DNA of 64,000 nt from positions 30,776 to 94,775 of the forward strand of contig CAYWEW010000003.1 in NCBI GenBank assembly GCA_964457775.1, given 5' to 3'. Of the stretch, positions 15,300-56,126 are shown one piece after another (position 1 is the stretch's first letter; each line of letters opens with the position of its first letter). Both the position numbers and the translations under genes were made by a program. The stretch is from an uncultured Candidatus Saccharibacteria bacterium. Its GTDB lineage: Bacteria; Patescibacteriota; Minisyncoccia; Phycocordibacterales; UBA5272. Below the pieces are notes generated by a model. It ran no database searches, was not told the DNA's origin, and worked only from the letters and a program-made list of their open reading frames with translations.

Positions 15300-15770
15300 T
15301 TGAGAAACAAATTTATGGAATATTTAACATTAGAAAAGAAAAATGAATTAGAAAATGAGCTTTTACAGCTCAAAAGTGTTCGTCGTAAGGAAATTGCAGA
15401 TTCTCTTGAATATGCAAAGTCTCTTGGTGATTTGTCAGAAAATGCTGAATATCATCAAGCTCGTGAAGACCAAGCTAATTGTGAGGATCGTATTTCTCAT
15501 ATTGAGCAAATTCTTAAGAATGCAGTTATTATGGAAACAGGTGTTAGTGGTGTTGTAAGTGTTGGTTCAACGGTTACAGTGTTAAAAAAAGGAAGTAAGG
15601 AAGAAAAGACTTTTGCTCTTGTTGGTAGTGAAGAAGCAGATTCTGTTTCTGGTAAAATTTCAAATGAGTCTCCGCTAGGGCAAGCATTACTTGGAAAGAA
15701 AAAAGGCGACAAAGTAATTGTTCACGCACCAAAAGGAGAAGTAGAATATTCAATTGTATCAACTGTTTAG
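15300..15770 (+). CDS. greA: transcription elongation factor GreA
   Basis: GreA N-terminal coiled coil LGDLSENAEYHxAREDQ and C-terminal FKBP-like domain. Confidence 0.9.
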   Translation: MRNKFMEYLTLEKKNELENELLQLKSVRRKEIADSLEYAKSLGDLSENAEYHQAREDQANCEDRISHIEQILKNAVIMETGVSGVVSVGSTVTVLKKGSKEEKTFALVGSEEADSVSGKISNESPLGQALLGKKKGDKVIVHAPKGEVEYSIVSTV

Positions 15771-15832
15771 TTCGTAGTTACTGGTTACTAGTTGGTGGTA
15801 AATACAAAAGCGACAACAAAGTTGTCGCTTTT
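15731..15832 (+). repeat. direct repeat copy 1 (greA 3' end + terminator)
   Basis: 81 nt identical to 17902-17982, plus a ~20-nt diverged extension. Confidence 0.85.
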
Positions 15833-15834
15833 TG
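15808..15834 (+). terminator. greA intrinsic terminator (agcgacaac-aaa-gttgtcgct + T5)
   Basis: Perfect 9-bp stem followed by a T-run. Confidence 0.7.
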
Positions 15835-15899
15835 TGTTTAGTTTTATTGAATAAGTTTTCCCAAGGATAATGTTACACTGTATGTGTAGTATATAATTA

Positions 15900-17840
15900 T
15901 TGTTTTATATTCTACTTAAATATATAACAAGTGTGTATTCTCAAATTTACATAATTCAGCGTCTCCTAAATATAGCTCTGCCTTTTTTTGCTCTAATATT
16001 GCTTGTTGCAATCATTTTTTTTATTTATAAACTTTTTACGACAACAGATGAAGTTCGGGCTATAAATATGAGACGGATGACATTTAGTATAGTATCCATA
16101 TTTCTTGTCGTTATTCTTTGGGTTGTAGTTACTTTTTTAGGTTCTTCTACATATTTATTTAATAATTTTACCCACCTCTTTAAGGCATCTATATCTAATG
16201 ATTTGCATGCAAATCCAAATTTAGGGGGTGGGCCACTTGTTGTTTCCTTGACTGCGCCGGATGAGGTTATGAGAAAAATGGAAAATTGTACATATAGTAT
16301 TGGTTGGTTCGGGTCAAGTGGTAATGGTCTTTCCGTTGATTGGGGAGATGGAAAATCTGAGCCTAATCCAAATTCAAATGAAGGTAATAATGGTAAAAGT
16401 TGTACAGAGGTAGTAAAGAAACATATATATACTGCACCTGGAAAGTATACGATTAAAGTCACTAGTTGGCATCCTGGTCCAACTGATGGCGCTGTTATAG
16501 ATTGGATAGGAAAAACAAATGTGGAAGTAACTGTAAAAGATAATATTACATCCTCCATTGAGATTTTATCTCCTTCAGATGGAGAAACTTATTTTTATCA
16601 AAGTGATCCAGTGATTACTTGGAAGGTTATTGCTGGGAAGAAACTTTCACTTGTTAGTGAATTATTAGATAAAAATGATAATGTAATTGTTTCTGAAAAA
16701 AAAGATAACATTGCATTTAGTGGCGAAGGTAGTACTAGGTTTATATTAAGAGGTAGAACATACGATAATTTTTTAAAAAATGGTGATATCGAGACTACGA
16801 CAAGAGTTCGTCTTTTTGATAATAATACTATTGTTGCAGAAAACAGAAGTAAAGTTTTTACTTTATCAGCAAGGCATGTCGACTCAATAAATGAAAAACT
16901 TATAATATCTTCTGTTTCCAGCACTAGTCCATTTAGCGTAAAGGCATCATTTTCTTATTTTAATGCAATATGTGTCTCAAGCGTACTTGATTGGGGGGAT
17001 GGGTCACCTTTAGTAGAAAATATTAAACAAGTTCAAAAATCATGCCCACTAGATGATGAAACTAAAACATTTGAACATGTGTATCAAAAAATAGGTAAAT
17101 ACAAGATTATTTTAAAAACAAACGAATTTGATTTTGATGATGTTAAATTAGTCGTCCCTTATTATTCTAAGACAATTGAAGTTTCAGATGGGGGCATAAT
17201 AATTCCAAAGGATAAAACAGTTCCAGAAGTAGAAGTAGTGATTCCTGTTGTGGTGCCAAGTATTAGTATTAAATATGTATATCCAGATTACCTTAAGTTG
17301 AGTTATGAGAATTTATCAGAGTCAACAGCTGAGCTAATTAGTGAAAAAACAGGAAAAGTCGTGCATAGTATTGGTGTTATTAAGGATATGAGTGGTTCAC
17401 AACGAGTATATTTAAAGTCTATATCTGCTTTAGGAAAAAATTTAGAAAATGGGTATTATTATGTGCGTACCGTATCTAATTCAACATTAAAGCAAGAGGT
17501 TGTTCGTAGTGATCGCTTTTATTTTCAGCCTAATATTAATAATCCAGCAACCTTCATGTACCCTCTAAAGGATATAATTATAAAAAAAGGAGAACCATTA
17601 AAAGTTGATTATAAAATTAATCAAAATGAACTGGACGGTGATCCACTTTCTATCACAATTAGTATTGTTGGTGATAATTCTGTGATTGGGGGAGGGTACG
17701 GTGAAAAAGCAGTAATTGGGGAACATTCTCATGAATGGATTATTGATGAGGTTGGTATATATCGTCCTTACATAAATGTACGGTTTAGAGAAATTTCATA
17801 TACATTTCCTGGAGCGCTTATTACTGTGGTTGGTAATTAA
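15900..17840 (+). CDS. membrane-anchored surface protein with two PKD-like domains
   Basis: VDWGDG...KHIYTAPGKYTIKV and LDWGDG...HVYQKIGKYKI match the PKD consensus WDFGDG..HxYxxxGxYxV. N-terminal hydrophobic segments. ORF-track start is TTG; ATG at 16068 (MRRMTF...) is a likely true start. Confidence 0.6.
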   Translation: MFYILLKYITSVYSQIYIIQRLLNIALPFFALILLVAIIFFIYKLFTTTDEVRAINMRRMTFSIVSIFLVVILWVVVTFLGSSTYLFNNFTHLFKASISNDLHANPNLGGGPLVVSLTAPDEVMRKMENCTYSIGWFGSSGNGLSVDWGDGKSEPNPNSNEGNNGKSCTEVVKKHIYTAPGKYTIKVTSWHPGPTDGAVIDWIGKTNVEVTVKDNITSSIEILSPSDGETYFYQSDPVITWKVIAGKKLSLVSELLDKNDNVIVSEKKDNIAFSGEGSTRFILRGRTYDNFLKNGDIETTTRVRLFDNNTIVAENRSKVFTLSARHVDSINEKLIISSVSSTSPFSVKASFSYFNAICVSSVLDWGDGSPLVENIKQVQKSCPLDDETKTFEHVYQKIGKYKIILKTNEFDFDDVKLVVPYYSKTIEVSDGGIIIPKDKTVPEVEVVIPVVVPSISIKYVYPDYLKLSYENLSESTAELISEKTGKVVHSIGVIKDMSGSQRVYLKSISALGKNLENGYYYVRTVSNSTLKQEVVRSDRFYFQPNINNPATFMYPLKDIIIKKGEPLKVDYKINQNELDGDPLSITISIVGDNSVIGGGYGEKAVIGEHSHEWIIDEVGIYRPYINVRFREISYTFPGALITVVGN

Positions 17841-17880: not shown

Positions 17881-17983
17881 GAAAAGGTGAAGTTGAAGAT
17901 ACAATTGTATCAACTGTTTAGTTCGTAGTTACTGGTTACTAGTTGGTGGTAAATACAAAAGCGACAACAAAGTTGTCGCTTTT
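17881..17983 (+). repeat. direct repeat copy 2 (degenerate greA tail ...KGEVEDTIVSTV* + terminator hairpin)
   Basis: Matches 15731-15832. Confidence 0.85.
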
Positions 17984-18080
17984 GTATTTTATATTTTAGT
18001 CGACTTAGTAATTGGTATCTGGTATTATTAATTGATATTAGTATGTATTAACTACTAACCAGTAACTATAAACTACCCAT

Positions 18081-28916: not shown

Positions 28917-28962
28917 ACGATGCATTAATAATTCTAAAACTATTAACTAGTAACTATTAACT

Positions 28963-30060
28963 ATGAGTTTATCTATCGGAATTGTTGGACTTCCAAACGT
29001 CGGCAAGTCAACATTATTTAATGCAATAACAAATAAATCAGTTCCAGCTGATAATTATCCTTTTTGTACTATTGATCCATCAGTAGGAGTTGTTCCTGTG
29101 CCTGATGAGAGACTCGCAGTGTTATCAAAAATTTCTGGTTCTAGAAAATTAATTCCTGCCATTGTAGAATTCGTAGATATTGCAGGACTTGTAAAGGGGG
29201 CATCAGCTGGTGAAGGGCTTGGTAATGCATTTCTTTCACATATTCGGGAGACGGATGCAATTGCAGAAGTTGTGCGTATCTATGAGAATAGTGATTTGAT
29301 ACACGTAGAAGGAACTGTTGACCCACTTCGTGATATTGAGATTATCAATATGGAATTAATTCTTGCTGATATGCAAACAGTTGAGAAGCGTAGTCAAACC
29401 ATTGGGCGCGATGTGAAGCGTGGTGATAAAGATGCGATTAAGCTCGCTGGACTACTTGAAGTATTAAAGAAAAATTTGGAGGAAGAAAAACTAGCGAATA
29501 CTATTTCTTTTGATACTGAAGAGACCAAACTCGTACGTGACTTGCATCTGATTACTATGAAGCCATTTCTTTATGTTTTGAATAAGCAATCTGGTGGAAA
29601 AAATCTAGACGAAATGAACGATGAGAGGTTCACTAAGTTAATAAATTATTTCAAAGAAAATAATTTTAAATATGTAATAGTTGATGCCAAGATAGAAGAT
29701 GAACTCAAAGAATTCGAAGGTGAGGAAAAAGAAATGATGCGTAACGAAATGAATGCACATGACAGTGGTGTAGATGGCCTAATCAAAGCTGGATATGACT
29801 TGCTCGGACTCGAGACATATCTTACAACTGGTGAAATGGAAACACGCGCATGGACAATTAAGAAAGGAAGCACGGCACCACGTGCGGCAGCTGCGATACA
29901 CTCAGATTTTGAAACAAAGTTTATTCGTGCGGAAGTTGTTGCATATGATGACTTAGTCAAAGCCGGAAATTATGGAGATGCAAAGGCTCGGGGAGTATTA
30001 AGAACAGAAGGTAAGGAATATATAGTGAAAGATGGGGATGTCATTGAATTTAAGATTTAA
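28963..30060 (+). CDS. ychF: ribosome-binding ATPase YchF/Ola1
   Basis: GIVGLPNVGKST, NKxD-like LNKQS, C-terminal TGS domain. Confidence 0.95.
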   Translation: MSLSIGIVGLPNVGKSTLFNAITNKSVPADNYPFCTIDPSVGVVPVPDERLAVLSKISGSRKLIPAIVEFVDIAGLVKGASAGEGLGNAFLSHIRETDAIAEVVRIYENSDLIHVEGTVDPLRDIEIINMELILADMQTVEKRSQTIGRDVKRGDKDAIKLAGLLEVLKKNLEEEKLANTISFDTEETKLVRDLHLITMKPFLYVLNKQSGGKNLDEMNDERFTKLINYFKENNFKYVIVDAKIEDELKEFEGEEKEMMRNEMNAHDSGVDGLIKAGYDLLGLETYLTTGEMETRAWTIKKGSTAPRAAAAIHSDFETKFIRAEVVAYDDLVKAGNYGDAKARGVLRTEGKEYIVKDGDVIEFKI

Positions 30061-32517: not shown

Positions 32518-33804
32518 ATGAAGAACCTACCTCAACAACTAAAGGGCATAGCAATAGGAACCATTTTCTTTATTGGTCTATTATATGTAAGTGCATGGAC
32601 TGGAGCTCCAACAGGAACACCACCAGCAAACAACGTAGATGCCCCTGTAAATGTTAGTATTAACTCGCAATATAAAGATGGAGCATTAGGTGTTGGAGGT
32701 TTGATTCGTGGTTATGCAGACGCAATATTTGATGGAGGTGTAAAAATAGGAACAACAACAGACGTTTGTAGTTCAGCATTAGGTGGAACATTGCGCTATA
32801 ACAGCAGTGCTAGATGTGTAGAATTTTGTGATGAGTCATCATGGAAATGTACAAATCAGACAGCTACACCACCAACATGTACTTCGTTTACTTATTCCAG
32901 CTGGTCCCCGTCAGTTTGTGTTAATGGTACACAAACAAGAACTGTAACAACTTCATTACCATCTGGCTGTGTTGGAGGAACGTCATCAACAAGTCAAAGC
33001 TGTACCGTCCCAGATTTTTCTTATACTGCAACTATTTCTGACACACCAAATTATAATTTAAGAGATGTTGTTTTGGCTGCTGGATGGGATGGATCTAAAA
33101 AAGTGGTTGCAACTATTACTATAAACGGTGACGTATATTCAACTTCAAATGCTATTCCTGCCTTCGATACTGGAGATCTACCTGCAGGTTCAAGTGTTAC
33201 AATTATAAATAATGGTAATATTATCGGTAAGGGTGGTAATGGTGGAGTAGGGTATGGATCAAGTTTATGGGCAGGCTTTGGATACGCCTATACAGTTGGT
33301 ACCCCAGGTGAAGATGGTGGTCCAGCACTAAAAGTAAGAGCTATTACAGTTATTAGGAATTATGGTGTTATAGCAGGAGGAGGAGGAGGTGGTGGTGGTG
33401 GTGGATACGCATATAATAATTATTATTATCAGAACTATGGTAGTGCTGGTGGCGGTGGAGGTGGTGGTGGACAGGGATACAACGCAGGTAGTGCTGGTGG
33501 TGGTGGTATTTTAAGTGGATACAGTTCAGCGAGTGGTAATTCTGGTAGCTCTGGAACATTTAGTTCTGCTGGATTGGGTGCTACAGCTGTAAATTCTTCT
33601 AATTCACAAGGAGACGGTGCAGCTGTATATGGAAGTGCTGGAGGAAATGGTGGAACACTTGGCAATCCAGGACAAGTAGGAGGTAGTGGATCTGCTCAGT
33701 ATGCTAGTGGTGGATATCCTGGAGGACTGGCAGGGAATTCAGTTATAGGTAATTCATATGTATCTTGGGAAGTTGTTGGAACTAGATTGGGTCCTGTTAA
33801 TTAA
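32518..33804 (+). CDS. N-terminally anchored Gly-rich extracellular protein (cassette A, paralog of 41344..42315)
   Basis: Hydrophobic anchor then AWTGAPTGTPPANNVDAPVNV...IGTTT, Cys-rich middle, (G)n/GGxGG C-terminus. Confidence 0.6.
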   Translation: MKNLPQQLKGIAIGTIFFIGLLYVSAWTGAPTGTPPANNVDAPVNVSINSQYKDGALGVGGLIRGYADAIFDGGVKIGTTTDVCSSALGGTLRYNSSARCVEFCDESSWKCTNQTATPPTCTSFTYSSWSPSVCVNGTQTRTVTTSLPSGCVGGTSSTSQSCTVPDFSYTATISDTPNYNLRDVVLAAGWDGSKKVVATITINGDVYSTSNAIPAFDTGDLPAGSSVTIINNGNIIGKGGNGGVGYGSSLWAGFGYAYTVGTPGEDGGPALKVRAITVIRNYGVIAGGGGGGGGGGYAYNNYYYQNYGSAGGGGGGGGQGYNAGSAGGGGILSGYSSASGNSGSSGTFSSAGLGATAVNSSNSQGDGAAVYGSAGGNGGTLGNPGQVGGSGSAQYASGGYPGGLAGNSVIGNSYVSWEVVGTRLGPVN

Positions 33805-33840
33805 ATTTATGAATTTTTTTTACTTTAAACTATATATTAT

Positions 33841-34437
33841 ATGTTAGGTTATCCAATAAAAACAATCCTCGTATCTATTCTTATTTTTATGTTAGGAGTT
33901 GTTTCTAGTGTTTTTTTAACTATTTTATATTTCAAGATTAGTGGAAAAAATCCGGAAATGAATTATGCAAATACTAATACAAATAGTGTAAATGTAGACA
34001 CAAATAAACCTATTGTTAAAAATGAAGAAACAAAGCAGAATTTTGAGATGAATTATATAGTTGGAGAAATAATTTCTTTAAGTGGAAATAAATTAAACAT
34101 TAAAATTAATCCAGTATTAAATCCTATTTTTAAAGATAAAGGGGAAAGTGTTGTGGAGGTAACAGTAACAGATATGACCAAATTTGTGTCTATGGTACAA
34201 AAAGACGCGACAATTTTTAAAAAGGAGTTACTAGATTTTCAAAAAATACCCATTGCAAATAGAGATTTTTCTATGTCACCTCAACCCTTCTTAGAAAAGG
34301 AAACATCTCGCGACTTGTTTACTATAGGTAAAATGGTTGTAGTAAAATCAAAGGAAAAAATATCTAGTTCTACCACATCAATAAAAGCAGAATCAGTTGG
34401 TATAGCACCAGAGATACCTAAAGCTACATCACGATAA
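33841..34437 (+). CDS. membrane-anchored beta-rich partner protein (cassette A, paralog of 42350..42934)
   Basis: N-terminal TM; shared blocks with paralog (Y(I/F)VG(E/D)..S.SG, ..KD...F.KE...(F/Y).(K/N)IPI..R). Confidence 0.55.
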   Translation: MLGYPIKTILVSILIFMLGVVSSVFLTILYFKISGKNPEMNYANTNTNSVNVDTNKPIVKNEETKQNFEMNYIVGEIISLSGNKLNIKINPVLNPIFKDKGESVVEVTVTDMTKFVSMVQKDATIFKKELLDFQKIPIANRDFSMSPQPFLEKETSRDLFTIGKMVVVKSKEKISSSTTSIKAESVGIAPEIPKATSR

Positions 34438-34587
34438 AAATATTTATTAGTAGGAGTTTTATATTCATAAAACGAGGCATATTTTAATCTTAATTAGTTT
34501 GTTGAATAGTAGTGATGTTGGTATTTCAAGTAATTAAGAAGAATAAAGGAAACTTTAAACTAAGTATTTTAATGATATAATGAAGGC

Positions 34588-34967
34588 GGTGCAGTAGTTG
34601 TGCGCCAAGTGTTCTTTTTAATGCAATTCAAGATAAGGATCCAATCATGAAAAATTGTGATAAGTGTCTCAAGTCACCCATTGTAACCGGAGCTGATATC
34701 AAGAGTTACAGACACGGTCTCCACATGAATGTGAATACTTTTGCTGGAGTTTTTTAAACCAGTCGGCAGAATGTCTCACGGCTTGAGCGATTGAATCGCC
34801 CACTTACAGAGGAGGAAAAAAGAAGTTTGCGCTTCGTTAGAAAAGACTGGAAATTTGATCCAAAGAAGTGTCGCGAGACTTTGATGGTTGATTCCAGAAA
34901 CCAATAAGCCCATTGATGTACCAAACAGTAACAACAACACTGGAAGTATGTCAGTGGGTTGTTTTTT
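34588..34967 (+). ncRNA. candidate orphan transcript (unknown RNA or cluster of micro-ORFs)
   Basis: Extended -10 TGATATAAT at 34573-34581; hairpin + T6 at 34931-34967; no ORF of at least 60 aa on either strand; GC-richer than flanking DNA. Confidence 0.3.
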
Positions 34968-35020
34968 GTGTATTAGTAACTACCAACTATTTACTATTAG
35001 ATATATACTGAATTAATAAT

Positions 35021-35413
35021 ATGAATGATTCAAAACCACACCTCGCTATTTCTGTTGGAGATACAGCCACACTAATTAACTATATGGTGGATGGTGAAGT
35101 AGTCGTGTCACACACGCATCCAATCGGTTACAAACATATTGAGGCTGATGGTATGAGTATTATTGCCGGATCAAAATTTATAGATGGAATTTTATATGCG
35201 CTAGAATTTATTTCACTACACGATAGAATTCCTACCGAATTTAAATTAGTTTCACCTAGATATTCAAGATGGATAGGCGAAGTAATAGAAAATAATTCTT
35301 ATACACAGTTTTATACTGACGGAGCACCAATAAGTGTTACACTAGAAGGTATAACAGACGCTCCTCTTTCATATGCACGACATTCGCAAACCATACATTC
35401 GTTCAAGCTCTAA
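35021..35413 (+). CDS. hypothetical protein (130 aa)
   Basis: ORF whose 3' end overlaps the next gene by 41 nt in another frame. Confidence 0.4.
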   Translation: MNDSKPHLAISVGDTATLINYMVDGEVVVSHTHPIGYKHIEADGMSIIAGSKFIDGILYALEFISLHDRIPTEFKLVSPRYSRWIGEVIENNSYTQFYTDGAPISVTLEGITDAPLSYARHSQTIHSFKL

Positions 35414-36785
35414 TCGTGACCTCAATTCCCGTGTTGAGCAATTTGAAAGACACTCGTATGAAAGTGAAGATTATGATGAACGTGAAAATGGTCCAGTACA
35501 AATTCCAGTTAGACGTGTTAGAAGAAATGTAAATGATATGGATATGTATCCACGTAGAAGGATGGGTGATGTAAGGTATGAGGACGATGAGCCGTATGAA
35601 GAAGAAAGACACAATCGAAGAGCTAGTGATAATCAAACAAGGAGAATACATCGTGATGGCACTTTAGGTACTTGGATTTTTATAGCGGTAGTTGTTGTTT
35701 TTGCAGTTGTTGCAGGATTATTTACATATATATTCGATAGTGCCACTGTAACAATTGTCCCAAAGTACAAAGATGTTAACGATTACAATAAAACAATTTT
35801 ATTTTCACAAAAGGAGACAGATTCTAGTAGTGTACCTTTCGTTGTAATTACCGCATCATCTACAAAAAGTAAAATATTGGCACTTTCTGAATCAAAAAAA
35901 GTAGAATCAAAAGCCTCAGGTAAAGTCATTATTTATAATAATTATGACTCTACTCCACAGAAACTTATTAAGAATACTAGATTAGAATCTGCGGCTGGTA
36001 AAATTTATCGCATTAATCAATCAGTTACTGTTCCAGGTAAAAAGGGAGATATCCCAGGTAGTGTAGAAGCAACTGTATATGCTGATAGTAATGGAACATC
36101 ATATAACACCCAAGCAACTGATTTTAGTATTCCTGGATTCAAGGGGACACCTCAAGATAAAGCCTTTTATGCAAAAGGCAAGGGTGCAATCTCTGGTGGC
36201 TCGTCAGGTAATGTCTCCTCAGCTTCACTTTCTGATATTAATGCTGCAAAAGATGAACTGGCGTTGGAACTTGCTCAAGAAGTAAAGGCTGCATTAATGA
36301 AAATAAACAAAGAAGGATATATTGGTCTTTATGGAGCCTCAGAAATTACTTATATTGATAATGAGATTGAAGTATTGAATGGAACAACAGGTACATATGA
36401 AGTAACTGCTACAGGACATCTTATACTTGCTGATGCTTCTAAGTTAGCTCAGATTATCGGAAAAGAAGTTAGGGGTTACGCTAATGAACCAGTAAGACTA
36501 GGTTATACAGAAACACTTACATATACAAGAAAAGACACGGACCGTATTTCTACCAGTACAGCACTGTCAATTTTAGTAGAAGGTAAACCTCGCATTATTT
36601 GGGTTAGTGATACAGATAGTATTAAGGAAATGGTTCGCAGTAAGAAGCGAGATGAATTCAAATCTTTAATGAAAAATATAAGTACTATACAAACTGCTGC
36701 AATTAGTTTTTCACCATTATGGCTTTCTACTTTTCCATCTGATGTAGGAAAAATTGCTATTGTTGAGTCGTTACCAAAAAGATAA
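35373..36785 (+). CDS. membrane-anchored protein with basic/acidic cytoplasmic tail and large extracytoplasmic domain
   Basis: Charged 110-aa N-terminus, one TM (WIFIAVVVVFAVVAGLF), then 340 aa beta-rich. Confidence 0.55.
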   Translation: MHDIRKPYIRSSSNRDLNSRVEQFERHSYESEDYDERENGPVQIPVRRVRRNVNDMDMYPRRRMGDVRYEDDEPYEEERHNRRASDNQTRRIHRDGTLGTWIFIAVVVVFAVVAGLFTYIFDSATVTIVPKYKDVNDYNKTILFSQKETDSSSVPFVVITASSTKSKILALSESKKVESKASGKVIIYNNYDSTPQKLIKNTRLESAAGKIYRINQSVTVPGKKGDIPGSVEATVYADSNGTSYNTQATDFSIPGFKGTPQDKAFYAKGKGAISGGSSGNVSSASLSDINAAKDELALELAQEVKAALMKINKEGYIGLYGASEITYIDNEIEVLNGTTGTYEVTATGHLILADASKLAQIIGKEVRGYANEPVRLGYTETLTYTRKDTDRISTSTALSILVEGKPRIIWVSDTDSIKEMVRSKKRDEFKSLMKNISTIQTAAISFSPLWLSTFPSDVGKIAIVESLPKR

Positions 36786-39095: not shown

Positions 39096-40067
39096 TTGCA
39101 TATGTCTTCACATTCTATCATTTTGCCTTCAAAGCCAAGAATCGTTAAAGAAGACGCCACTTCTGGCGTGTATGAAATAGACGGATTATATCCAGGATAT
39201 GGACATACTTTAGGAAATTCACTTCGTCGTATCATTCTTTCATCTGTACCTGGTGCATCTATCACATCATTATCTATTGATGGTGTAAAGCATGAATTTT
39301 CAGCAATTGATGGAATCAAAGAAGACGTTATTGCTATTATTCTTAATCTTAAGAAGACTCGTTTTAAATTACATGGGGATGATGCACAAAAAGCAACTCT
39401 AAATATTAAGGGTGCAAAAATTACCACAGCTGATAATATTTCTCTTCCTTCACAACTTGAAATCATGAACAAGGATCAATATATTTGTGAATCAACTGCA
39501 AAGGATGTTGATCTAGCTATTGAACTTACAATTGAAAAAGGTCTAGGTTATGTACCTCGTGAAGTTCTTTTGAAGGATAAGGCAGATATCGGAACAATCG
39601 TTCTTGATGCATCATTTACTCCTATTCGTCGCGCTAGTTACGAAGTAGAAAACATGCGTGTTGGTGACAGAACTGACCATAACCGTCTTCGTGTTTCTAT
39701 CGAAACAGATGGAACAGTTACTCCACATGAGGTTCTTGAATCATCAATACACACAATGATTACACAACTTCAATCTATTGTTGGTTTCCGTGCTGAAGTT
39801 ATTGATATGCCAAAGGAGTCAAAACAAGAGCCTATTGTTGATTCTTCTGACTCACTTGATCTTACAGATGCAACAAAAGTTAAGATTGAAGATTTGGGAT
39901 TATCTACTCGTACCGAAAATGCTCTTGTTACTGCATCTGTTCGTACGGCAGGAGGACTTGCTCGTAAATCAGAAGCTGACCTTTTAGCAACTGATGGTCT
40001 TGGGGAAAAAGGAATTAATGAAATTAAAAAAGCACTATTTGATTTAGGTCTTACGCTTAAGGCATAG
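39096..40067 (+). CDS. rpoA: DNA-directed RNA polymerase subunit alpha
   Basis: NTD dimerisation motifs plus CTD. Confidence 0.95.
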   Translation: MHMSSHSIILPSKPRIVKEDATSGVYEIDGLYPGYGHTLGNSLRRIILSSVPGASITSLSIDGVKHEFSAIDGIKEDVIAIILNLKKTRFKLHGDDAQKATLNIKGAKITTADNISLPSQLEIMNKDQYICESTAKDVDLAIELTIEKGLGYVPREVLLKDKADIGTIVLDASFTPIRRASYEVENMRVGDRTDHNRLRVSIETDGTVTPHEVLESSIHTMITQLQSIVGFRAEVIDMPKESKQEPIVDSSDSLDLTDATKVKIEDLGLSTRTENALVTASVRTAGGLARKSEADLLATDGLGEKGINEIKKALFDLGLTLKA

Positions 40068-40113
40068 CAAAAAGGTCAGAATCATGATATAGTAGAGCAC
40101 TAATAGACAACGT

Positions 40114-40467
40114 ATGAAACATCACAAATCATTCAGAAAATTCGGACGAGAAAAAAACGAGCGCAAAGCATTTGTGCGTGGACTTCTTGTTAATCTTATT
40201 CGTCATGGTCGCATTGAGACTACACTTGCTCGCGCAAAAGAGATACGTCCTTTTGTTGAGAAGTTAGTTACTCTTGCAAAGGAGGACACTGTTGCACGTC
40301 GTCGTCTCATTATGTCTCGTATTATGAATCAAGATATTGAAACATCAAAGTTATTTGCTGAATATGCTGTGAAGTATAAGGCTGTATCTGGTGGATATAC
40401 TCGTATTCTAAAACTACCTACACGTATTTCAGACGGTGCTGAAAAAGCTATTATCGAATTTGTATAA
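40114..40467 (+). CDS. rplQ: 50S ribosomal protein L17
   Basis: MKHHKSFRKFGREKNERKAFVRGLL. Confidence 0.9.
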   Translation: MKHHKSFRKFGREKNERKAFVRGLLVNLIRHGRIETTLARAKEIRPFVEKLVTLAKEDTVARRRLIMSRIMNQDIETSKLFAEYAVKYKAVSGGYTRILKLPTRISDGAEKAIIEFV

Positions 40468-40477
40468 TTTTACTACT

Positions 40478-40822
40478 ATGAACCACATTATTGACGCAAC
40501 AGACAGACCATTAGGAAGAGTAGCTACAGAAGTAGCAGCACTACTTAATGCAAAAAATAGTATTCATTTCGTAAAAAATCGTGTGGCAGAAGTTTCTGTT
40601 AAAGTAACCAATGCTTCAAAAATTAAAGTAACAGGAAGTAAAATGAAGGACAGTGTTCATAAATCATTCTCTGGTTACCCAAGCGGTCTAAAAGAAATGC
40701 CTCTTTCATATGTTGTTGCAAAGAAGGGTTTTTCAGAGCTTCTCACACATGCTGTACGTGGAATGTTACCAAAGAATAAGTTACAAGATATTCGTATGAA
40801 GAATCTCGTGATTGAGGAATAA
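40478..40822 (+). CDS. rplM: 50S ribosomal protein L13 (start at internal Met of ORF 40436)
   Basis: MNHIIDATDRPLGRVATEVAALL fits the L13 N-terminus; ORF-track start 40436 would overlap rplQ. Confidence 0.85.
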   Translation: MNHIIDATDRPLGRVATEVAALLNAKNSIHFVKNRVAEVSVKVTNASKIKVTGSKMKDSVHKSFSGYPSGLKEMPLSYVVAKKGFSELLTHAVRGMLPKNKLQDIRMKNLVIEE

Positions 40823-40837
40823 TAATTTTAAATATAT

Positions 40838-41245
40838 ATGGCTACAGAAACAAAACAGAGATACATAGAAGCAGTAGGACGTCGTAAGACAGCGATTGCT
40901 CGTGTTCGTATTACACCTGCAACAAAGACTTCTTTCGTTGTTAACGATAAGGATGTTAAGGAATATTTCGTAACAGAAGAACTTCAAATGATTGCTCAAG
41001 AAGCGATTAGTAAATCAGAAGTTGGTGAAAAGTTCTCAGTATCTATTCACGTATTAGGTGGTGGTATTCATGCACAAGCAGAAGCTGTACGTCATGGACT
41101 ATCTCGTACGCTCGTTCTTCGTGATGAAAACATCAAGAACACTCTTAAGAAACTTGGATTTCTAAAGCGTGACTCACGTCAAGTTGAAAGAAAGAAATTC
41201 GGTCTTAAGAAAGCACGTAAAGCTCCAACTTGGTCAAAGCGTTAA
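40838..41245 (+). CDS. rpsI: 30S ribosomal protein S9
   Basis: C-terminal ...GLKKARKAPTWSKR. Confidence 0.9.
   Translation: MATETKQRYIEAVGRRKTAIARVRITPATKTSFVVNDKDVKEYFVTEELQMIAQEAISKSEVGEKFSVSIHVLGGGIHAQAEAVRHGLSRTLVLRDENIKNTLKKLGFLKRDSRQVERKKFGLKKARKAPTWSKR
41219..41245 (+). repeat. direct repeat copy 1 (rpsI last 9 codons incl. stop)
   Basis: aaagctccaacttggtcaaagcgttaa; 26/27 identical to 42965-42991. Confidence 0.8.
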
Positions 41246-41252
41246 TAATAAT

Positions 41253-41281
41253 AAACTGCACATATGTGCAGTTTATTTTTT
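41253..41281 (+). terminator. rpsI intrinsic terminator (ctgcacat/atgtgcag palindrome + T-run)
   Basis: Perfect 8-bp palindromic stem followed by tttattttt. Confidence 0.65.
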
Positions 41282-41343
41282 CAAGTAAGTCAAATGTGGA
41301 TAAGTTACATAATGGGTATCAGTTTTGTGTTACAGTGTCCTAT

Positions 41344-42315
41344 ATGAACAGTGGATCAACAATAAATACAAGAACTCAAGATTCTTTCACTAAGGCATCT
41401 TTGATAATGATATTATCTATAATACTTGGTACTGTAACTTATGCATGGGTAGGTCCAACAAGTATGGCTCCTAACGGAAATGTACCTCCACCGATTAATG
41501 TTGGTTCAGTTCTGCAAGAAAAGTTGGGAGGACTTAAAATATTTGGTGACTTAACTGTTGGAACGACAACTAGTCCAAATGCAACTTTAACTGTCCATGG
41601 GAAAATATATTCTGAATCTACATTAAGTTCTGATACTGCACATACAGTTGTCACTAAGGATTTTATCCCAAGGTGTTCTTCAGGTAAGTTCTTAACAAGT
41701 GATGGGAATCAGCTGTTGTGCAAAACAGCCACAGTTCCTCCTTCCTGCGGAACAGAGTCAAATGTTGGTCCAAACACAGTTGTTACGTTTACATCTTCAT
41801 GTGTGTTCGTTGTTCCTGACGGAGTTAATTCTGTTAATTTGAAAGTGGTTGGAGGTGGAGGTGGAGGTGGAGGAGGGTCTGATTTTGGTGGTGCTAGTAG
41901 TGGGGGACAGAGTGGAACACAGTCATCGTTCTCAACAGTTGTAGCTTTACCTGGTGGTGGTGGAGGTGGAGCAGGGATGCTTCAATATAATTACGTGTGT
42001 TATGGAGGCGCAGCAGGTGCTGGATACCCTTCTGGAACAGAAGGGGTAACTTGTGGATATGGATCGGTTACTGGCGCTTCCAATGGTTCTGGATACGGTT
42101 CAGGTGGGGATGGTAAAACCTCTGCTATTGATGGTGGTGGAGGAGGAGGTAGTGGTGGTGCTGGACAAGTTGTTACACAGACATTAAGTGTCACTTCAGG
42201 TCAAAACATATCTGTTGTAGTTGGGGGTGGAGGATCACGAGGATCTAGTACATATGGTAATGTTGGTACTTCTGGTACAAACGGTGTTGTTACTGCTACT
42301 TATACTACACCATAA
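41344..42315 (+). CDS. N-terminally anchored Gly-rich extracellular protein (cassette B)
   Basis: AWVGPTSMAPNGNVPPPINV...VGTTT N-terminus parallels cassette A; poly-Gly blocks; start at ATG 41344 (ORF-track 41230 overlaps rpsI). Confidence 0.6.
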   Translation: MNSGSTINTRTQDSFTKASLIMILSIILGTVTYAWVGPTSMAPNGNVPPPINVGSVLQEKLGGLKIFGDLTVGTTTSPNATLTVHGKIYSESTLSSDTAHTVVTKDFIPRCSSGKFLTSDGNQLLCKTATVPPSCGTESNVGPNTVVTFTSSCVFVVPDGVNSVNLKVVGGGGGGGGGSDFGGASSGGQSGTQSSFSTVVALPGGGGGGAGMLQYNYVCYGGAAGAGYPSGTEGVTCGYGSVTGASNGSGYGSGGDGKTSAIDGGGGGGSGGAGQVVTQTLSVTSGQNISVVVGGGGSRGSSTYGNVGTSGTNGVVTATYTTP

Positions 42316-42349
42316 TCCAAAATATAATGGAAAAGTTCTTCTAAAATTT

Positions 42350-42934
42350 ATGAGTCCGAATTTAAAAAATATTATTATATATATTCTCATCTTAATTATA
42401 GGAGTTTTTATTGGTGGTTACTCAGTGAATTTATATTTCAAGACCAAAATTCAGAAAATATTTATGAGTAATGTTACTTCTAGCGAATCAGTAAATAATG
42501 ATGTATTTGATAACAATGCTCAAGCATCTAACTCAAAAATTTTAAAAACAAAGTATTTTGTTGGAGATGTTGTTTCTTTTTCTGGTGATACAATTATTAT
42601 AGACTCTGAAAATATATTGTATCCGTTGTCCGTTTCTAAAGAAAAGCACCAAGTAACCGTCAAAATAGATAATAATACAAAATTTATTAGTACCACCTTA
42701 AAAGATAAGGCAATTTTTGAAAAGGAAATGCGTGATTATAAAAATATTCCAATTGACAAAAGAGCGCAGATTACATCACCAAAATCTTTAATTGAAAAAG
42801 AAATACCTCGTAATTCAATTAGTGTTGGTAAAAAAATAGTCATTAAATCAAAAGAAGAGTTAGTTTCTACTACTAAATATTTTGTAGCTGAATCGATTAG
42901 TTTAACTTATGAATTGTCTAAAGCCACAAATTAA
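42350..42934 (+). CDS. membrane-anchored beta-rich partner protein (cassette B)
   Basis: Paralog of 33841..34437; start at ATG 42350 (MSPNLKN...). Confidence 0.55.
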   Translation: MSPNLKNIIIYILILIIGVFIGGYSVNLYFKTKIQKIFMSNVTSSESVNNDVFDNNAQASNSKILKTKYFVGDVVSFSGDTIIIDSENILYPLSVSKEKHQVTVKIDNNTKFISTTLKDKAIFEKEMRDYKNIPIDKRAQITSPKSLIEKEIPRNSISVGKKIVIKSKEELVSTTKYFVAESISLTYELSKATN

Positions 42935-42964
42935 ATACCGGGGACTCTTTTAAGGAAACCTCTT

Positions 42965-42991
42965 AAAGCTCCAACCTGGTCAAAGCGTTAA
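42965..42991 (+). repeat. direct repeat copy 2 (rpsI 3' end duplicate)
   Basis: aaagctccaacctggtcaaagcgttaa followed by its own hairpin terminator. Confidence 0.8.
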
Positions 42992-42995
42992 AAAC

Positions 42996-43022
42996 AAAAA
43001 CCTGTCATTTGACAGGTTTTTT
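42996..43022. terminator. intrinsic terminator (cctgtca-ttt-tgacagg flanked by A5/T6)
   Basis: Hairpin with flanking A/T runs on both strands. Confidence 0.6.
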
Positions 43023-43044
43023 GTTTTTAGAATTACATATTTGT

Positions 43045-43506
43045 ATGCTAAAATTAATTCATATGAATAATCTAGAAAAAAATACACCACAAAATAATGA
43101 ACCAGAGAATCCAGGGAGAAGAGGTTTTCTTGGGAAGATGTTCGGAGCTGCTGCACTTGGAACAGTTGCTGCTATGGCTGGAAATAAATATATTAAACAA
43201 GAGCTCGAGAATAATAATGAAATTAATAATCTATACTTATCTTTTAAAGATAAAGAAAATGATATTCACAAAGTAAACGAAGCTACTGCTTTATTAATAG
43301 AAGAAATGAATAAAAGCAGTATTGACCAGGTAAAAATTTCAGGAATGGGTCATCCAAATGATCGTATAGATATTTTGAGGGACTTTTTAACCAAACACCT
43401 TAATTCCAAAATTGGAAATAAATATTCATTTAAGAATAGAATATTTTCATCTGGTGTTTATAAAAGAGAGGACTTAATTGATATTTTGAGCGCCACAACA
43501 AAGTAG
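43045..43506 (+). CDS. hypothetical secreted protein with twin-arginine (Tat) signal
   Basis: PGRRGFLGKMFGAAALGTVAAMAG = S/T-RRxFLK-type Tat signal; start 43045 or 43063 (ORF-track TTG 43009 lies inside the terminator). Confidence 0.5.
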   Translation: MLKLIHMNNLEKNTPQNNEPENPGRRGFLGKMFGAAALGTVAAMAGNKYIKQELENNNEINNLYLSFKDKENDIHKVNEATALLIEEMNKSSIDQVKISGMGHPNDRIDILRDFLTKHLNSKIGNKYSFKNRIFSSGVYKREDLIDILSATTK

Positions 43507-43581
43507 TTTTGTAATTTTAAATTAGCCGTGTTAGTGTAGTTTTAGAGGTTTCAATTAGTTGTCTAATTTGTGGAGGAAAAA

Positions 43582-43836
43582 ATGAATACACGTGAAATAA
43601 TTGTAAATCTTGATGAAGACTCAGTAAAGAGAATCGGAATACTTTTTGGAGATGATGTTACGACAATGGAGGGTGCTGAAGATTTTTTTAAACTAGCGAT
43701 GGTAACCCTTTTATCAATGGGTGAAGAGATGAAAAAGGGGAGAATAATTGTTTCTATGAACCCAAACGCGGTTGGTGGTTTTACAGGATTGAAATTTGAT
43801 TTCCCAAAGCCAAAACCAATATGCAGAGTCAAATAG
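43582..43836 (+). CDS. hypothetical small protein (84 aa), SD-bearing
   Basis: GGAGGA SD 43572-43577, 4 nt before ATG. Confidence 0.45.
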   Translation: MNTREIIVNLDEDSVKRIGILFGDDVTTMEGAEDFFKLAMVTLLSMGEEMKKGRIIVSMNPNAVGGFTGLKFDFPKPKPICRVK

Positions 43837-43846
43837 ATTTTAAATC

Positions 43847-43878
43847 AAACAGCACTTAGGTGCTGTTTTTGTTTTTTT
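43847..43878 (+). terminator. intrinsic terminator (acagcac-ttag-gtgctgt + T-run)
   Basis: Hairpin followed by a T-run. Confidence 0.6.
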
Positions 43879-43939
43879 ACTTAATTATGCTAGTGTTCTT
43901 GTAGAAATACTGCACATTCATATTTAAAGGAGAAACAAA

Positions 43940-44743
43940 GTGCTTGGATATCTTCTTGAAAAAAGACCACAAGAAATTTATAGACTTGAGTTAAATGAAA
44001 ATGGTTTTGTTTTTAAAATTCGAAATGCATTTTTTGAGTACTTACTCAATTGTATTAAAAAAGAGGAAGACAAAATTCATTTAATAAAACTTGCAAATGA
44101 TGTAGTTGAAGGCGTAGTCATTTTCTACATAAATTTGCCATTTATCAGATATCCAAATTTTTCACACAAATCAACAGATTGGAAGAGTTTGTGCAAATGT
44201 GCAGAAGATATGAGTTTTCTATTTCGTCTGCTTAATTATCCACCAACAGACTTGGATTTGGTAGGTAATCACTCATACTGTTTAAGTGAAAAGACACAGC
44301 TCATGACTATTTCTACTAGTCATTATAGTAATGACGGTTTTCACTCTTCTCCGATTGAAGTTGGGTTTAGTAGAAAGGCTTGTGAACTTCTTGTTACTTC
44401 ATTTAAACAGGATACACACTTTAAAGAATGTGAGGAGTCTGCGCATAGTGTGTACTTTGGTTTATCCTCCAAAACAAAAAGTGAATTTGAGAGAAGTAAA
44501 AAGACTTTCCTAAAATATTCCGGAGGATTCATGGGGATAACTGCCATGGTAAGAGGCGGAGGCACTCCACACTTCGTTGTTCCAGGAAACTGTGCTTGTT
44601 TGGGTGCAAATCCAGATAGGTTCAAGTTTGATAGGGATACGCATTCTCACAACATGGATTCTTCATTACAACAGATGAGTATGCTCGCATCTTTGGTTAC
44701 GTTCTGGAATAAGGTTCTAATTCCATTACAGGACGGAAGCTAA
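43940..44743 (+). CDS. hypothetical Cys/His-rich protein (267 aa), SD-bearing, GTG start
   Basis: AAGGAGAAACAAA then GTG; no recognised family. Confidence 0.5.
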   Translation: MLGYLLEKRPQEIYRLELNENGFVFKIRNAFFEYLLNCIKKEEDKIHLIKLANDVVEGVVIFYINLPFIRYPNFSHKSTDWKSLCKCAEDMSFLFRLLNYPPTDLDLVGNHSYCLSEKTQLMTISTSHYSNDGFHSSPIEVGFSRKACELLVTSFKQDTHFKECEESAHSVYFGLSSKTKSEFERSKKTFLKYSGGFMGITAMVRGGGTPHFVVPGNCACLGANPDRFKFDRDTHSHNMDSSLQQMSMLASLVTFWNKVLIPLQDGS

Positions 44744-44756
44744 TCATTTGATTTTG

Positions 44757-44785
44757 AATCACCACACTTGCTGTGGTGATTTTTC
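44757..44785 (+). terminator. intrinsic terminator (atcaccaca-N5-tgtggtgat + T5)
   Basis: Hairpin followed by a T-run. Confidence 0.6.
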
Positions 44786-44929
44786 TTGACTTTTTTTTCA
44801 ATATAATTTATATATTATATGTGCGAGAAAAATGCTATACTGATAATAACGGAATTACGGAAACGACAGATAATTCAGGAATACAGAAATGTGTATATTA
44901 GTAAGATTTTGTAATGATATTGAGTACGT

Positions 44930-45562
44930 ATGAATAATAATGATGAAGAAATAATTAAAGATGATGTAACACAAGAGGAACAAACAGAAATTAAAAAAGA
45001 ACAAATAACTAGTGACGACACAGACGATATTTCTTTTGAAGAAGTAGATGAAGATGGTGAGCAAAATGTAAAAGTTACTATTAAAAAACTTCGTGAAAAG
45101 ATTAAGAAATTAGAAAGTGAAAAGCAGGAATACTTAGATTTAAGTCAACGCACAAGAGCTGACTATGTTAACTTCAAAAAAGAAGTTGAAAGCAATCTAG
45201 TTTCGAACAGGAAGTTTGCTACAAAGAGATTTATTGAAGAGTTGCTTCCAGTACTTGATTCATATGATATGGCACAAGGAAACGCAGAAGCCTGGGAGAA
45301 GGTAGATAAGAATTGGAGAGTTGGAATTGAATATATTTTTAATCAATTCAAAACCGTGCTTGAAAATGAAGGAGTAACACAGTTCGGAAAAATTGGAGAT
45401 AGTTTTAATCCGGAATTACATGAAACAATGCTGTCAGTGGAAGTTAATAATGAAAATGAAGATGAAAAAATTGTGAAGGTGTTACAAAATGGATATAAGA
45501 TGCACGATAGTATATTACGTCCAGCTCGTGTACATGTTGGTCAGTTTAAAAAAGAGAATTAA
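44930..45562 (+). CDS. grpE: nucleotide exchange factor GrpE
   Basis: Coiled-coil plus GrpE C-terminal beta domain (NGYKMHDSILRPARV). Confidence 0.9.
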   Translation: MNNNDEEIIKDDVTQEEQTEIKKEQITSDDTDDISFEEVDEDGEQNVKVTIKKLREKIKKLESEKQEYLDLSQRTRADYVNFKKEVESNLVSNRKFATKRFIEELLPVLDSYDMAQGNAEAWEKVDKNWRVGIEYIFNQFKTVLENEGVTQFGKIGDSFNPELHETMLSVEVNNENEDEKIVKVLQNGYKMHDSILRPARVHVGQFKKEN

Positions 45563-45590
45563 TTTAGAAATTTAAAATAATATAAAACTT

Positions 45591-47498
45591 ATGGCAAAAA
45601 TAATTGGAATTGATTTAGGAACAACAAACTCAGCAGTTGCAATAATCGAAGCAGGGCAACCAAAAATCATAGAAAATACTGAAGGTAATCGTACAACTCC
45701 TTCAGTTGTTTCAGTAAATAAAAACGGTGAGCGCGCAGTTGGCCAAATAGCAAAACGTCAAGCAGTAACTAATCCAGAAAATACAATTTATGGAGTAAAG
45801 CGCTTCATGGGTCATTCATTCACAGACAAAGAAGTGCAAAATGATATTCCTCGCGTTGCTTACAAATTAAAAGCAAGTAGTAATGGGGGTGTATCTATTT
45901 CATTAGGTGGTAAAGATACTCGTCCAGAAGAAATCTCCGCGATGATTTTACAAAAAATTAAGACAGATGTAGAGGCAAAAACAGGTGAGACAATTACTCA
46001 AGCTGTTATTACTGTTCCTGCATATTTCAATGATGTACAACGTCAAGCAACTATTGATGCGGGTAAAATCGCAGGACTTGAAGTTATGCGTATCATTCCT
46101 GAACCAACAGCAGCAGCTCTCGCTTATGGATTCAACAGTACCAAGAATGAAAAGATTGCAGTGTATGACTTCGGAGGAGGAACATTTGATATTTCTATTC
46201 TAGAAGTAGGTGATGGTGTTGTAGAAGTAAAATCAGTTGACGGTGACTCACACTTAGGAGGACGTGACATTGACCAGAAGTTCGTAGAATATATTGCTTC
46301 TGAATTTAAGAAAGATCAAGGTATTGATGTTTCAAAAGATGCGCTTGCATTACAGCGTCTTGATGAAGCAGCAGAAAAGGCAAAGCATGAACTTTCTACA
46401 CAATTAGAAACAGAAATTAATCTTCCATTTATCACTTCTGGGGTTGATGGTCCAAAGCACTTAGTTGTGAAAGTTACTCGTGCGAAGTTAGAAGAAATTG
46501 CAAAAGAATTTGTTGACCGCTCAATTGAAATTACAAAGCGAGCACTTGAGGCATCTCCATTTAAGAAAGAAGAAATTCATGAAATTATTATGGTTGGAGG
46601 ACAAACTCGTATGCCTATGATTGTGGAAGCCGTGAAGGCATTATTTGGTAAGGAGCCAAATCGTTCAATTAACCCAGACGAAGTGGTGGCGCTCGGTGCT
46701 GCTGTTCAAGCTGGAGTATTACAAGGAGATGTGAAAGACGTTCTTCTTCTTGACGTTATTCCACTTTCACTTGGTATTGAAACTATGGGAGGTGTTGCAA
46801 CCAAGCTTGTTGAAAGGAATATGACTATTCCAACAGCAAAGTCACAAATTTTCTCAACAGCATCAGACAATCAAACCTCCGTTGAAATTCACATTACTCA
46901 AGGTGAAAGACCACTTGCTGCTGATAATAAGTCACTAGGTAGATTTATTCTTGACGGTATTCCACCAGCACCACGAGGTATGCCACAAGTTGAAGTTACA
47001 TTCGACGTAGATGCTAACGGTATCTTAAACGTTGCTGCGAAAGATAAAACATCTGGTAAGGTTCAATCCATTCGTATTGAAGCATCATCTGGTCTATCTG
47101 ATGAAGATATAAAGAAAATGCAAAACGATGCTGAAGCACATGCTGATGAAGATAAAAAGAAAATGGAACTTGTTGAAGTAAAGAATATGGCAGACACAAT
47201 GGTTCATACCGCAGAAAAAGCAATCAAAGATGCGGGGGATAAAATTTCTGAAGAAATAAAGAAGGAAGTTACAGATGCTATCGCGGAAGTGAAAACGGCT
47301 CGTAATGGAGATAATAAGGAAGTGCTTACAAAAGCAACTGAGAATCTTTCAGAAAAAATGATGAAAATTGGTGAGGCTATGAAATCAGCCAATGATCAAG
47401 CAACTCAATCAAACGCTACAGAAACAACTGAAGCTCCAAAAGAAGAAGGAAATGATGCGTCAGAAACAAAAAAAGATGACACAGGTGCAAATGCATAG
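45591..47498 (+). CDS. dnaK: chaperone DnaK (Hsp70)
   Basis: [22 protein letters not shown]... full Hsp70. Confidence 0.97.
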
Positions 47499-56030: not shown

Positions 56031-56126
56031 CTAGTATCTGTAATAATTTTGTCTATTCAAATATTTTAAAAAATCACTAATAATTATCAACTAGTAACCA
56101 GTAACTATTAACTATATACTAGTTGT

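Follow-up and report, generated by a model that had tools for sequence, protein, structure and literature searches.

The prophages e14 and phage 21, which reside in the icd gene of Escherichia coli, bring with them an alternative, mainly synonymous 3' end of the gene, and the resident end is displaced to the far side of the element; both encode an integrase and have a defined att core, which distinguishes them from the rpsI cassette described here. In Streptococcus thermophilus, cis-mobilisable elements (CIMEs) that occupy the fda 3' end are att-flanked, integrase-less units with a small cargo, located at a conserved gene end, and they have att sites in common with identifiable integrative and conjugative elements (ICEs) of related strains. 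For type VI secretion system (T6SS) and Rhs loci, 3'-end displacement by homology-facilitated illegitimate recombination was suggested (PMC5361080), and natural competence has been shown in Saccharibacteria (PMC10633639). The locus analysed here lies in a 64-kb stretch of contig CAYWEW010000003.1 (hereafter the window; positions 30848-94847 of the 120-kb contig JACCDT011196272.1), which was placed in the Paceibacteria (Nomurabacteria-like Patescibacteria) from the relatives of its ribosomal protein S9. The last 27 nucleotides (nt) of rpsI, the S9 gene, recur there beyond a two-gene cassette. This repeat is best explained as a scar left by recombination at a hot spot of gene exchange and not as a functional element, and its second copy is a pseudogene stub, neither a gene nor a regulatory motif. 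Features of the window whose coordinates are written with two dots lie on the forward strand.

The rpsI gene (40838..41245; Pfam PF00380) is intact and functional, encoding 135 amino acids (aa) with 93-96% aa identity to Paceibacteria S9, and its C-terminus ends in KAPTWSKR* as in all relatives, the target open reading frame (ORF) being restored. The 27-mer AAAGCTCCAACTTGGTCAAAGCGTTAA, comprising the last eight codons and the stop, occupies 41219-41245 (41219..41245, copy 1) and recurs at 42965-42991 (42965..42991, copy 2, a displaced and untranslated tail stub) with one mismatch, ACT to ACC, which is synonymous, both codons specifying threonine. With 26/27 positions identical and none such expected, the recurrence reported in the initial annotation is a real duplication of the rpsI 3' end; a search of the window at up to three mismatches returned these two matches only, against 0.00 expected from 100 shuffles, and a chance or generic repeat is rejected. 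The pair extends to 50 nt at 84% identity in a repeat search (41209-41258 and 42955-43004), a gapped local alignment of the copies covers 78 columns, and the longest exact word common to both is 15 nt. Within rpsI, the nucleotides of the 27-mer are moreover those best conserved among relatives. The diverged upstream similarity of about 15 nt that had been noted earlier is present and weak, with 11/16 matches counted on the alignment over the 16 nt left of copy 2 (42949..42964); this patch may be either a decayed stub, a junction microhomology or a product of chance.

Each copy is followed by its own hairpin terminator, as had been annotated. T1 (AAACTGCACATATGTGCAGTTT and a T-run, 41250..41282) has a hairpin at about 41250-41277 of -15.1 kcal/mol (z -5.9), and T2 (AAAACCTGTCATTTGACAGGTTTT, 42996..43029) one at 42996-43021 of -19.7 kcal/mol (z -7.3). 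Both consist of an A-run, stem and T-run and are ordinary intrinsic terminators, far beyond shuffled sequences in energy, and their stems differ in sequence. Between the copies only two genes are encoded (41344-42315 and 42350-42934), again as annotated; T2 now terminates this cassette, being its sole terminator. No known RNA family was found in Rfam at either copy or in the post-rpsI elements of relatives. Over one or both junctions the window agrees at 100% identity with contigs assembled from SRR10036063, SRR10036065 and SRR10036056, and a single contig of these independent assemblies covers 39640-46031. The repeat layout is not an assembly artefact, because three further runs agree and the copies have only 15 exact bases in common.

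Alignment with relatives (cited below by locus numbers such as L087) bears out the insertion that had been read from the window: the cassette is absent from all relatives examined, no homologue being found at the rpsI locus in about 90 of them, including 80 species representatives, L087, L168, L083 and L084. The closest relative with sequence 3' of rpsI is L087, with 96% identity in S9 and 90% nt identity over rpoA-rpsI. Its rpsI and tail (…CCTACCTGG…) are followed by AAAACCTGTCtcacGACAGGTTTT, corresponding to T2, and then by homologues of orf43063 and orf43582 and by grpE. Positions 1-1221 of L087 align to 40035-41245 of the window and 1185-1352 to 42955-43120; the extra DNA of the window amounts to 1746 nt, and its limits coincide with the repeat. 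Since the alignment resumes at 42955, copy 2 with T2 and orf43063 appears to be the ancestral (resident) junction, and copy 2 carries the ACC of L087. T2 is orthologous to the rpsI terminators of L087 and L001.

In L168 (S9 95% identical), rpsI is followed by AAAACTGCACATATGTGCAGTTTT and then by the orf43063 homologue, and the stem-loop is identical to that of T1 in the window. From its ACT codon onward and into T1, copy 1 matches the L168/L086 allele. In the window, the 45 nt that follow the rpsI stop agree with L168 at 82% and with L087 at 42%; across rplQ-rpsI, L087 is the nearest sequence, with 92-94% identity outside a dip in mid-rpsI. T1 and T2 are thus alleles of the rpsI terminator from sister lineages, and they stand on opposite sides of the cassette. 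Because two sister-lineage alleles of tail plus terminator bracket the cassette, the rpsI duplication did not arise in place.

The gene order alaS ... rplQ-rplM-rpsI-[spacer]-grpE-dnaK-dnaJ is kept among the 80 species representatives, in which the rpsI-grpE spacer ranges from 72 to 4468 nt; grpE (44930..45562) is its conserved right border, by synteny in relatives. This spacer is a hypervariable hot spot for lineage-specific genes in the clade, because 61/91 of its ORFs are singletons and its 35 larger ORFs in relatives are varied, encoding pyruvate kinase, enolase and other metabolic enzymes as well as lectin-like and glycine-rich proteins. A tail repeat was seen at only 3 of about 85 rpsI loci, most hot-spot insertions having none. 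No tRNA or tmRNA target was found in the window.

The same footprint was found elsewhere. A nucleotide scan detected it at rpsI in L006, where the distal copy precedes a conserved element of about 135 nt that follows native rpsI in five relatives. A peptide scan of 3787 gene tails gave 11 downstream copies, versus 1 for shuffled and 2 for upstream controls, and added cases at rpsI of L035 and at alaS of L068 as well as a run of three alaS tails in L063; in L035 it is the proximal rpsI copy that has the native context. The stubs of all cases comprise 27-54 coding nt. The differences between copies are synonymous rather than non-synonymous at ratios of 6:2 in L006, 6:0 in L035 (including a TCA/AGC serine switch), 11:1, 8:1 and 12:0 in L063 and 9:1 in L068 (P<=0.0002 each, a bias inflated for cases from the peptide scan, which finds only stubs still encoding the peptide). 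The 12:0 ratio belongs to copies 2 and 3 of L063, both untranslated. Because the differences are almost all synonymous, the copies in L006, L035, L063 and L068 probably evolved as working gene ends, that is, as alleles from different lineages.

The alaS tails of L063 form a series of four at 2746-3114 (EEAVAQGIRRIKA[IV]LE*), each with a terminator-like spacer, repeating every 105-117 nt; among copies 1-3 there are differences of 9-14 nt, nearly all of them synonymous, and the fourth copy has decayed. A single extra alaS tail is present in L068. The element of about 135 nt (AATATTGAG ... CTCAATATT; L006 10984-11120) abuts the rpsI stop in L009, L018, L031, L033 and L034; it has a predicted multi-hairpin fold with a few compensatory pairs, no Rfam match and no counterpart in the window. 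A second conserved post-rpsI element (CAAAACTATTTCATCTACTTTG...), found in L022, L024, L029, L035 and L045, is likewise absent from the window.

Within the window, the initial annotation had reported the same 3'-end duplication at greA, and it is real, 15731-15845 versus 17882-17996, bracketing one ORF. Copy 1 (15731..15845) comprises the last 13 codons of greA, one arm of a 26-nt inverted repeat and a terminator. Copy 2 (17882..17996), which carries the tail variant EVEDTIVSTV, has four differences in the first 22 nt; the other 93 nt, terminator included, are nearly identical, apart from a single 1-nt gap and a mismatch at the far end. This repeat of 115 nt (91% identity in the repeat search, 96% over a 102-nt blastn core) is stronger than that of rpsI. 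The bracketed gene, located between greA and a lysS-like gene (15900..17840), encodes PKD646, a 646-aa membrane-anchored PKD-like protein with weak matches to PKD domains and pilus proteins; it looks like a cell-surface protein, a function that we infer. PKD646 is an insertion, because in the greA relatives shown the lysS-like gene follows greA directly, with a spacer of 9-290 nt in most loci and no PKD646.

The 26-nt inverted repeat flanks the greA terminator (15768-15793 and 17919-17944 versus 18050-18075) and is 88% complementary. Further copies of its right arm, TAACYAGTAACTAWWAACTA, are found shortly before the start codons of several core genes, and a related motif occurs at 28927-28963, 34965-34995 and 56078-56114. 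In L088 a different sequence has the same inverted arrangement around the greA terminator, which suggests a conserved structure.

Exchange between lineages is seen at a paralogous two-gene cassette after alaS (32518..34437), which encodes GlyA2 (428 aa) and MemB2 (198 aa). GlyA2, with a membrane anchor at the N-terminus and a glycine-rich C-terminal region, passes the GP38 cut-off (33.3 versus 25; 6e-8) and matches phrog_11439 at 3e-16. A block of 1886 nt (32530..34415), nearly the whole cassette, is 100% identical in two other assemblies, GCA_052033735.1 and GCA_020049755.1 (L175, 10013-11898, and L176), in which the flanking core DNA is 77-85% identical. The breakpoints of the block lie inside the first codons of GlyA2 and the last codons of MemB2. 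Breakpoints so placed point to homologous replacement of the cassette and not to a site-specific insertion, and the block indicates that lineages have exchanged DNA by homologous recombination very recently. No significant tail repeat flanks the alaS cassette, the best local match around it (22/29) being within shuffle range.

That match lies near the right end of the identical block, which is a hint only. Between MemB2 and two overlapping core genes of 130 and 470 aa (35021-36785), which follow alaS in nearly all relatives and have no Pfam match, lie 580 nt without a convincing ORF (34438-35020). At the equivalent position L175 has two extra genes, of 193 and 510 aa, and only the last 125 nt or so (34894 onward, upstream of the 130-aa gene) align with L175, L002 and L001, apart from a weak 65% patch at 34683-34807. 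L175 also has about eight CTACACG heptamers after its MemB2 terminator (12000-12050).

The mechanism that is favoured, with a confidence somewhat short of even, is recombination that follows the uptake of DNA and has one end within conserved sequence and one ragged end, that is, displacement-type or homology-facilitated illegitimate recombination. DNA of a sister lineage would have been taken up, one end recombining in conserved sequence and the other being joined without adequate homology. In one direction, an incoming segment of rpsI 3' end, T1 and cassette would have pushed the resident tail and T2 downstream, and a single event would be needed. In the other direction, the cassette would already have been present and an incoming block of stub, T2, orf43063 and so on, anchored downstream, would have brought the rpsI stub of the donor; the stub would be too short to serve as a second anchor, which would explain why stubs never exceed about 55 nt, and this direction would fit L035 with its proximal copy in native context. 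Either way, the S9 C-terminus would stay intact, T1 would end rpsI and the T2 of the stub would end the cassette.

In agreement with displacement, the tail stub lies 3' of the new DNA, T1 matches L168 and T2 matches L087 and L001. Recombination between lineages is shown by the 1886-nt block, identical throughout in a background of 77-85%. The affected genes rpsI, greA and alaS are three unrelated ones, which is counted in favour of recombination with ragged ends. Neither the cassette nor the 64-kb window nor the 35 larger spacer ORFs of relatives yielded an integrase, a recombinase or a transposase, and no terminal inverted repeats were found at the cassette.

Several observations weigh against this mechanism. 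The three forward cases (rpsI and greA here, and L035) all have a cargo that lacks its own terminator and a stub that begins 6-41 nt after the stop of the cargo, a regularity of stub and terminator that random ragged ends do not predict. The left ends of the rpsI stubs are close together in two lineages (about -50 and -54). With an anchor in rpsI, the tails should pair through to the stop, and a join upstream of it poses a topological difficulty. The greA copies are nearly identical over 93 nt and yet hold four differences in the first 22 nt, which no simple two-allele model predicts; the greA repeat is poorly explained by any simple model. Tests for mosaic breakpoints in rpsI had too few informative sites to place one, the relatives being 82-94% identical, and no donor carrying the cassette was found among relatives. 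The inflation of the synonymous bias by the peptide scan belongs here as well.

A less probable alternative, to which perhaps a third of the weight may be given at most, is Campbell-type site-specific integration, in which a recombinase provided in trans would insert a small circular cassette, with the tail copy and terminator as an attP-like site. The product would be an integrase-less, att-flanked element like a cis-mobilisable element or a satellite; the circle would join the MemB 3' end, AAGGAAACCTCTT, the 27-mer and TAATAATAAACTGCAC, and the empty site would read rpsI ...AAAGCTCCAACCTGG... followed by T2. The rpsI 3' end is a documented target of tyrosine-integrase ICEs and integrative and mobilisable elements (IMEs) in streptococci (PMC4701971; IMESag-rpsI), and flanking direct repeats of the target 3' end, a restored ORF and an empty site in relatives were all found here. 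The stubs are short and alike in length (27-54 nt), with similar boundaries in two lineages, and the absence of a cargo terminator in 3/3 forward cases is what circular permutation of stub, terminator and genes predicts. Copy 1 is L087-like up to GCT and L168-like from ACT, and copy 2 has the resident-type ACC just right of the same point, so that these allele switches fit one reciprocal crossover in or near the 11-nt block AAAGCTCCAAC; L006 has an identical 20-nt core with diverged sequence on both sides. However, this crossover mapping rests on very few informative sites, and there is no integrase between the repeats, in the window or in the 35 spacer ORFs of relatives. The unrelated targets rpsI, greA and alaS would require several specificities, most hot-spot inserts have no tail repeat and the paralogous alaS cassette no significant one, T1 is an ordinary chromosomal allele of a sister lineage, and the rpsI-tail pattern is absent from 2.9 million viral contigs.

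A mode of cassette capture in Patescibacteria without a cassette-encoded integrase is considered improbable, at roughly one chance in eight. Terminator-less cassettes with a recoded core-gene stub of 9-18 codons and a hairpin would be inserted at the 3' ends of rpsI, greA and alaS by a recombinase in trans or by a host process dependent on hairpins or short homology. If such integrase-free capture were true, surface and adhesin genes would be shuffled among lineages, and arrays of stubs would be left as a record.

Duplication of tail and terminator in place, by replication slippage or as a target duplication, with subsequent divergence, is quite unlikely. The greA copies have a nearly identical 93-nt segment including the terminator, like a fresh target duplication, and L063 has tandem units of tail plus terminator with a period of 105-117 nt. 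At rpsI, however, the terminators differ in their stems, each matching the native terminator of a different sister lineage, and compensated double changes across a hairpin beside a tail 26/27 identical are implausible. The near-purely synonymous differences in L006, L035, L063 and L068, even between untranslated copies, contradict neutral decay.

Still less credible, at a few chances in a hundred, is that copy 2 is a selected functional element such as a signal that regulates the transcript of the cassette or directs its processing. In favour of this, conservation is far higher in the 27-mer than in the preceding 16 nt (1 versus 5 mismatches), and T2 is the only terminator of the cassette. Against it, Rfam gives no match, isolated tail copies at a conserved position are lacking in all relatives, and the copies sit behind unrelated cargos and genes; since no other part of rpsI is as conserved in nucleotides as the 27-mer, two alleles would be similar there in any case. 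An assembly chimera of two co-occurring strains is hardly conceivable: related strains do co-occur and contig L174 starts 2 nt from the left end of a near-identical blastn match that other strains have in common, but 15 exact shared bases at most are too few for a de Bruijn join, and the three further runs and the contig spanning 39640-46031 read across one or both junctions. A transposon or insertion sequence is rejected, there being no transposase, no terminal inverted repeats and a repeat that is 27-50 nt long and imperfect as against the exact duplication of 2-15 bp, and so is an integron cassette, there being no integrase in the window and the hairpins being terminators of A-run, stem and T-run.

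The two cargo genes probably encode proteins of the cell surface, one of them glycine-rich and adhesin-like, the other a partner with a membrane anchor and a small barrel. GlyA (41344..42315, 323 aa) has an N-terminal membrane anchor and a glycine-rich C-terminal half and resembles the adhesin tips of phage tail fibres. It matches Pfam Gly_rich_2 at E 3.7e-4 with 21.0 bits, under the curated cut-off of 24.3, and phrog_863 (tail fibre assembly) at 9e-7; an N-terminal motif is common to GlyA and GlyA2. GlyA was found only in this organism, and the clusters of the cassette genes hold this organism alone. MemB (42350..42934, 194 aa) has an N-terminal transmembrane helix, a disordered linker and an OB-like small beta-barrel in the AlphaFold2 (AF2) model (pLDDT 82.6), and no terminator of its own. 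It is 35% identical to MemB2 (E 1e-31), and its family comprises about 105 cluster representatives among 1.8e9 proteins searched. A structure search gave no significant PDB match, the best being CusF (E 6e-3), and the protein is described as a predicted membrane-anchored OB-like barrel, nothing beyond this being assigned. A metagenome search for the genomic context of MemB relatives was without matches, and a word-based search gave only short contigs. No recombinase domain was found in the two cassette ORFs in Pfam, PHROGs or NCBIfam, and three scans of viral contigs for a phage origin of the cargo or a phage-borne attP were negative.

The initial annotation had suggested that the island might extend to about 44.9 kb as one unit, the genes up to grpE bearing Shine-Dalgarno (SD) motifs. 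This extension is not supported. The first gene beyond the cassette, orf43063 (43063..43506), is an older resident of the spacer outside the insertion, located directly after rpsI in L002, L026, L042, L087 and L168 and after another insert in L085; it has no SD. An SD is present at the other two genes, as had been stated. One of them, orf43582 (43582..43836; GGAGG), is also an older resident, its homologues at the corresponding place in L087 and L085 being 69% and 62% identical in aa sequence. The other, orf43940 (43940-44743; AAGGAG), belongs to a separate insertion (43870..44772) with its own terminator and no tail repeat, which is absent from L087 and sits exactly between the T-run of the orf43582 terminator and the -35 box of grpE; a 40% homologue follows rpsI in L012. 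A single island reaching 44.9 kb is rejected by the synteny with L087 and L168 and by the orf43940 junctions, and SD content does not delimit one island, because the downstream genes are older residents and a separate insertion. An SD-like motif precedes 2/38 core genes of the window, the genome being nearly SD-less, and neither cassette gene has one. Many gene starts in the window have a TATAAT-like hexamer 6-12 nt before the ATG (e.g. 8647, 13451, 24950, 30502 and 40478); together with the few SDs this suggests leaderless mRNAs or mRNAs with very short leaders.

Patescibacteria have tiny genomes and live attached to host cells, and the way in which they gain or exchange surface proteins, about which little is known, bears on their host range. 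The locus provides an example, resolved to the base, of two sister-lineage alleles of tail and terminator bracketing an adhesin-like cassette. Tail stubs may serve as cheap markers of recent gene gain in metagenome-assembled genomes, and they allow a test of whether transformation-type recombination or a site-specific system drives the gene flux of the phylum.

Among described systems, the C-terminal displacements of Rhs, CdiA and T6SS loci, with their arrays of orphan 3' ends (Kirchberger et al. 2017, PMC5361080, citing Jackson et al. 2009 for rhs), are similar in that an incoming segment anchored in conserved sequence provides a new 3' end together with downstream genes, the old end remaining as a stub. 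Repeated events give arrays there, comparable to the alaS tails of L063, no dedicated integrase is required, and the setting is one of naturally transformable or highly recombining populations. Unlike those loci, where the new tip encodes a different toxin and is itself the payoff, here the tail encodes the same housekeeping peptide and is a passenger, the cassette being the payload, and the stubs are much shorter (27-54 nt). The streptococcal ICEs and IMEs at rpsI (IMESag-rpsI; Ambroset et al. 2016, PMC4701971) use the same end of the same gene, with a direct repeat of the tail and a restored coding sequence. They differ in having a tyrosine integrase and mobilisation or conjugation genes over many kb, whereas the present cassette is 1.7 kb long, carries two surface-protein genes and no recombinase, and belongs to another phylum. 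In contrast to CIMEs, no integrase-bearing partner was found, the search covering the 64-kb window and 35 spacer ORFs of relatives. Integron cassettes resemble it as small units of one or two genes at a fixed site, older units being pushed distally, but IntI, attI and attC are all missing here, the hairpins are intrinsic terminators and the repeat is a gene tail. The footprint thus belongs to a known kind, in which the displaced 3' end of a gene marks DNA exchanged horizontally, and it is here documented in Patescibacteria by comparison at the level of single bases.

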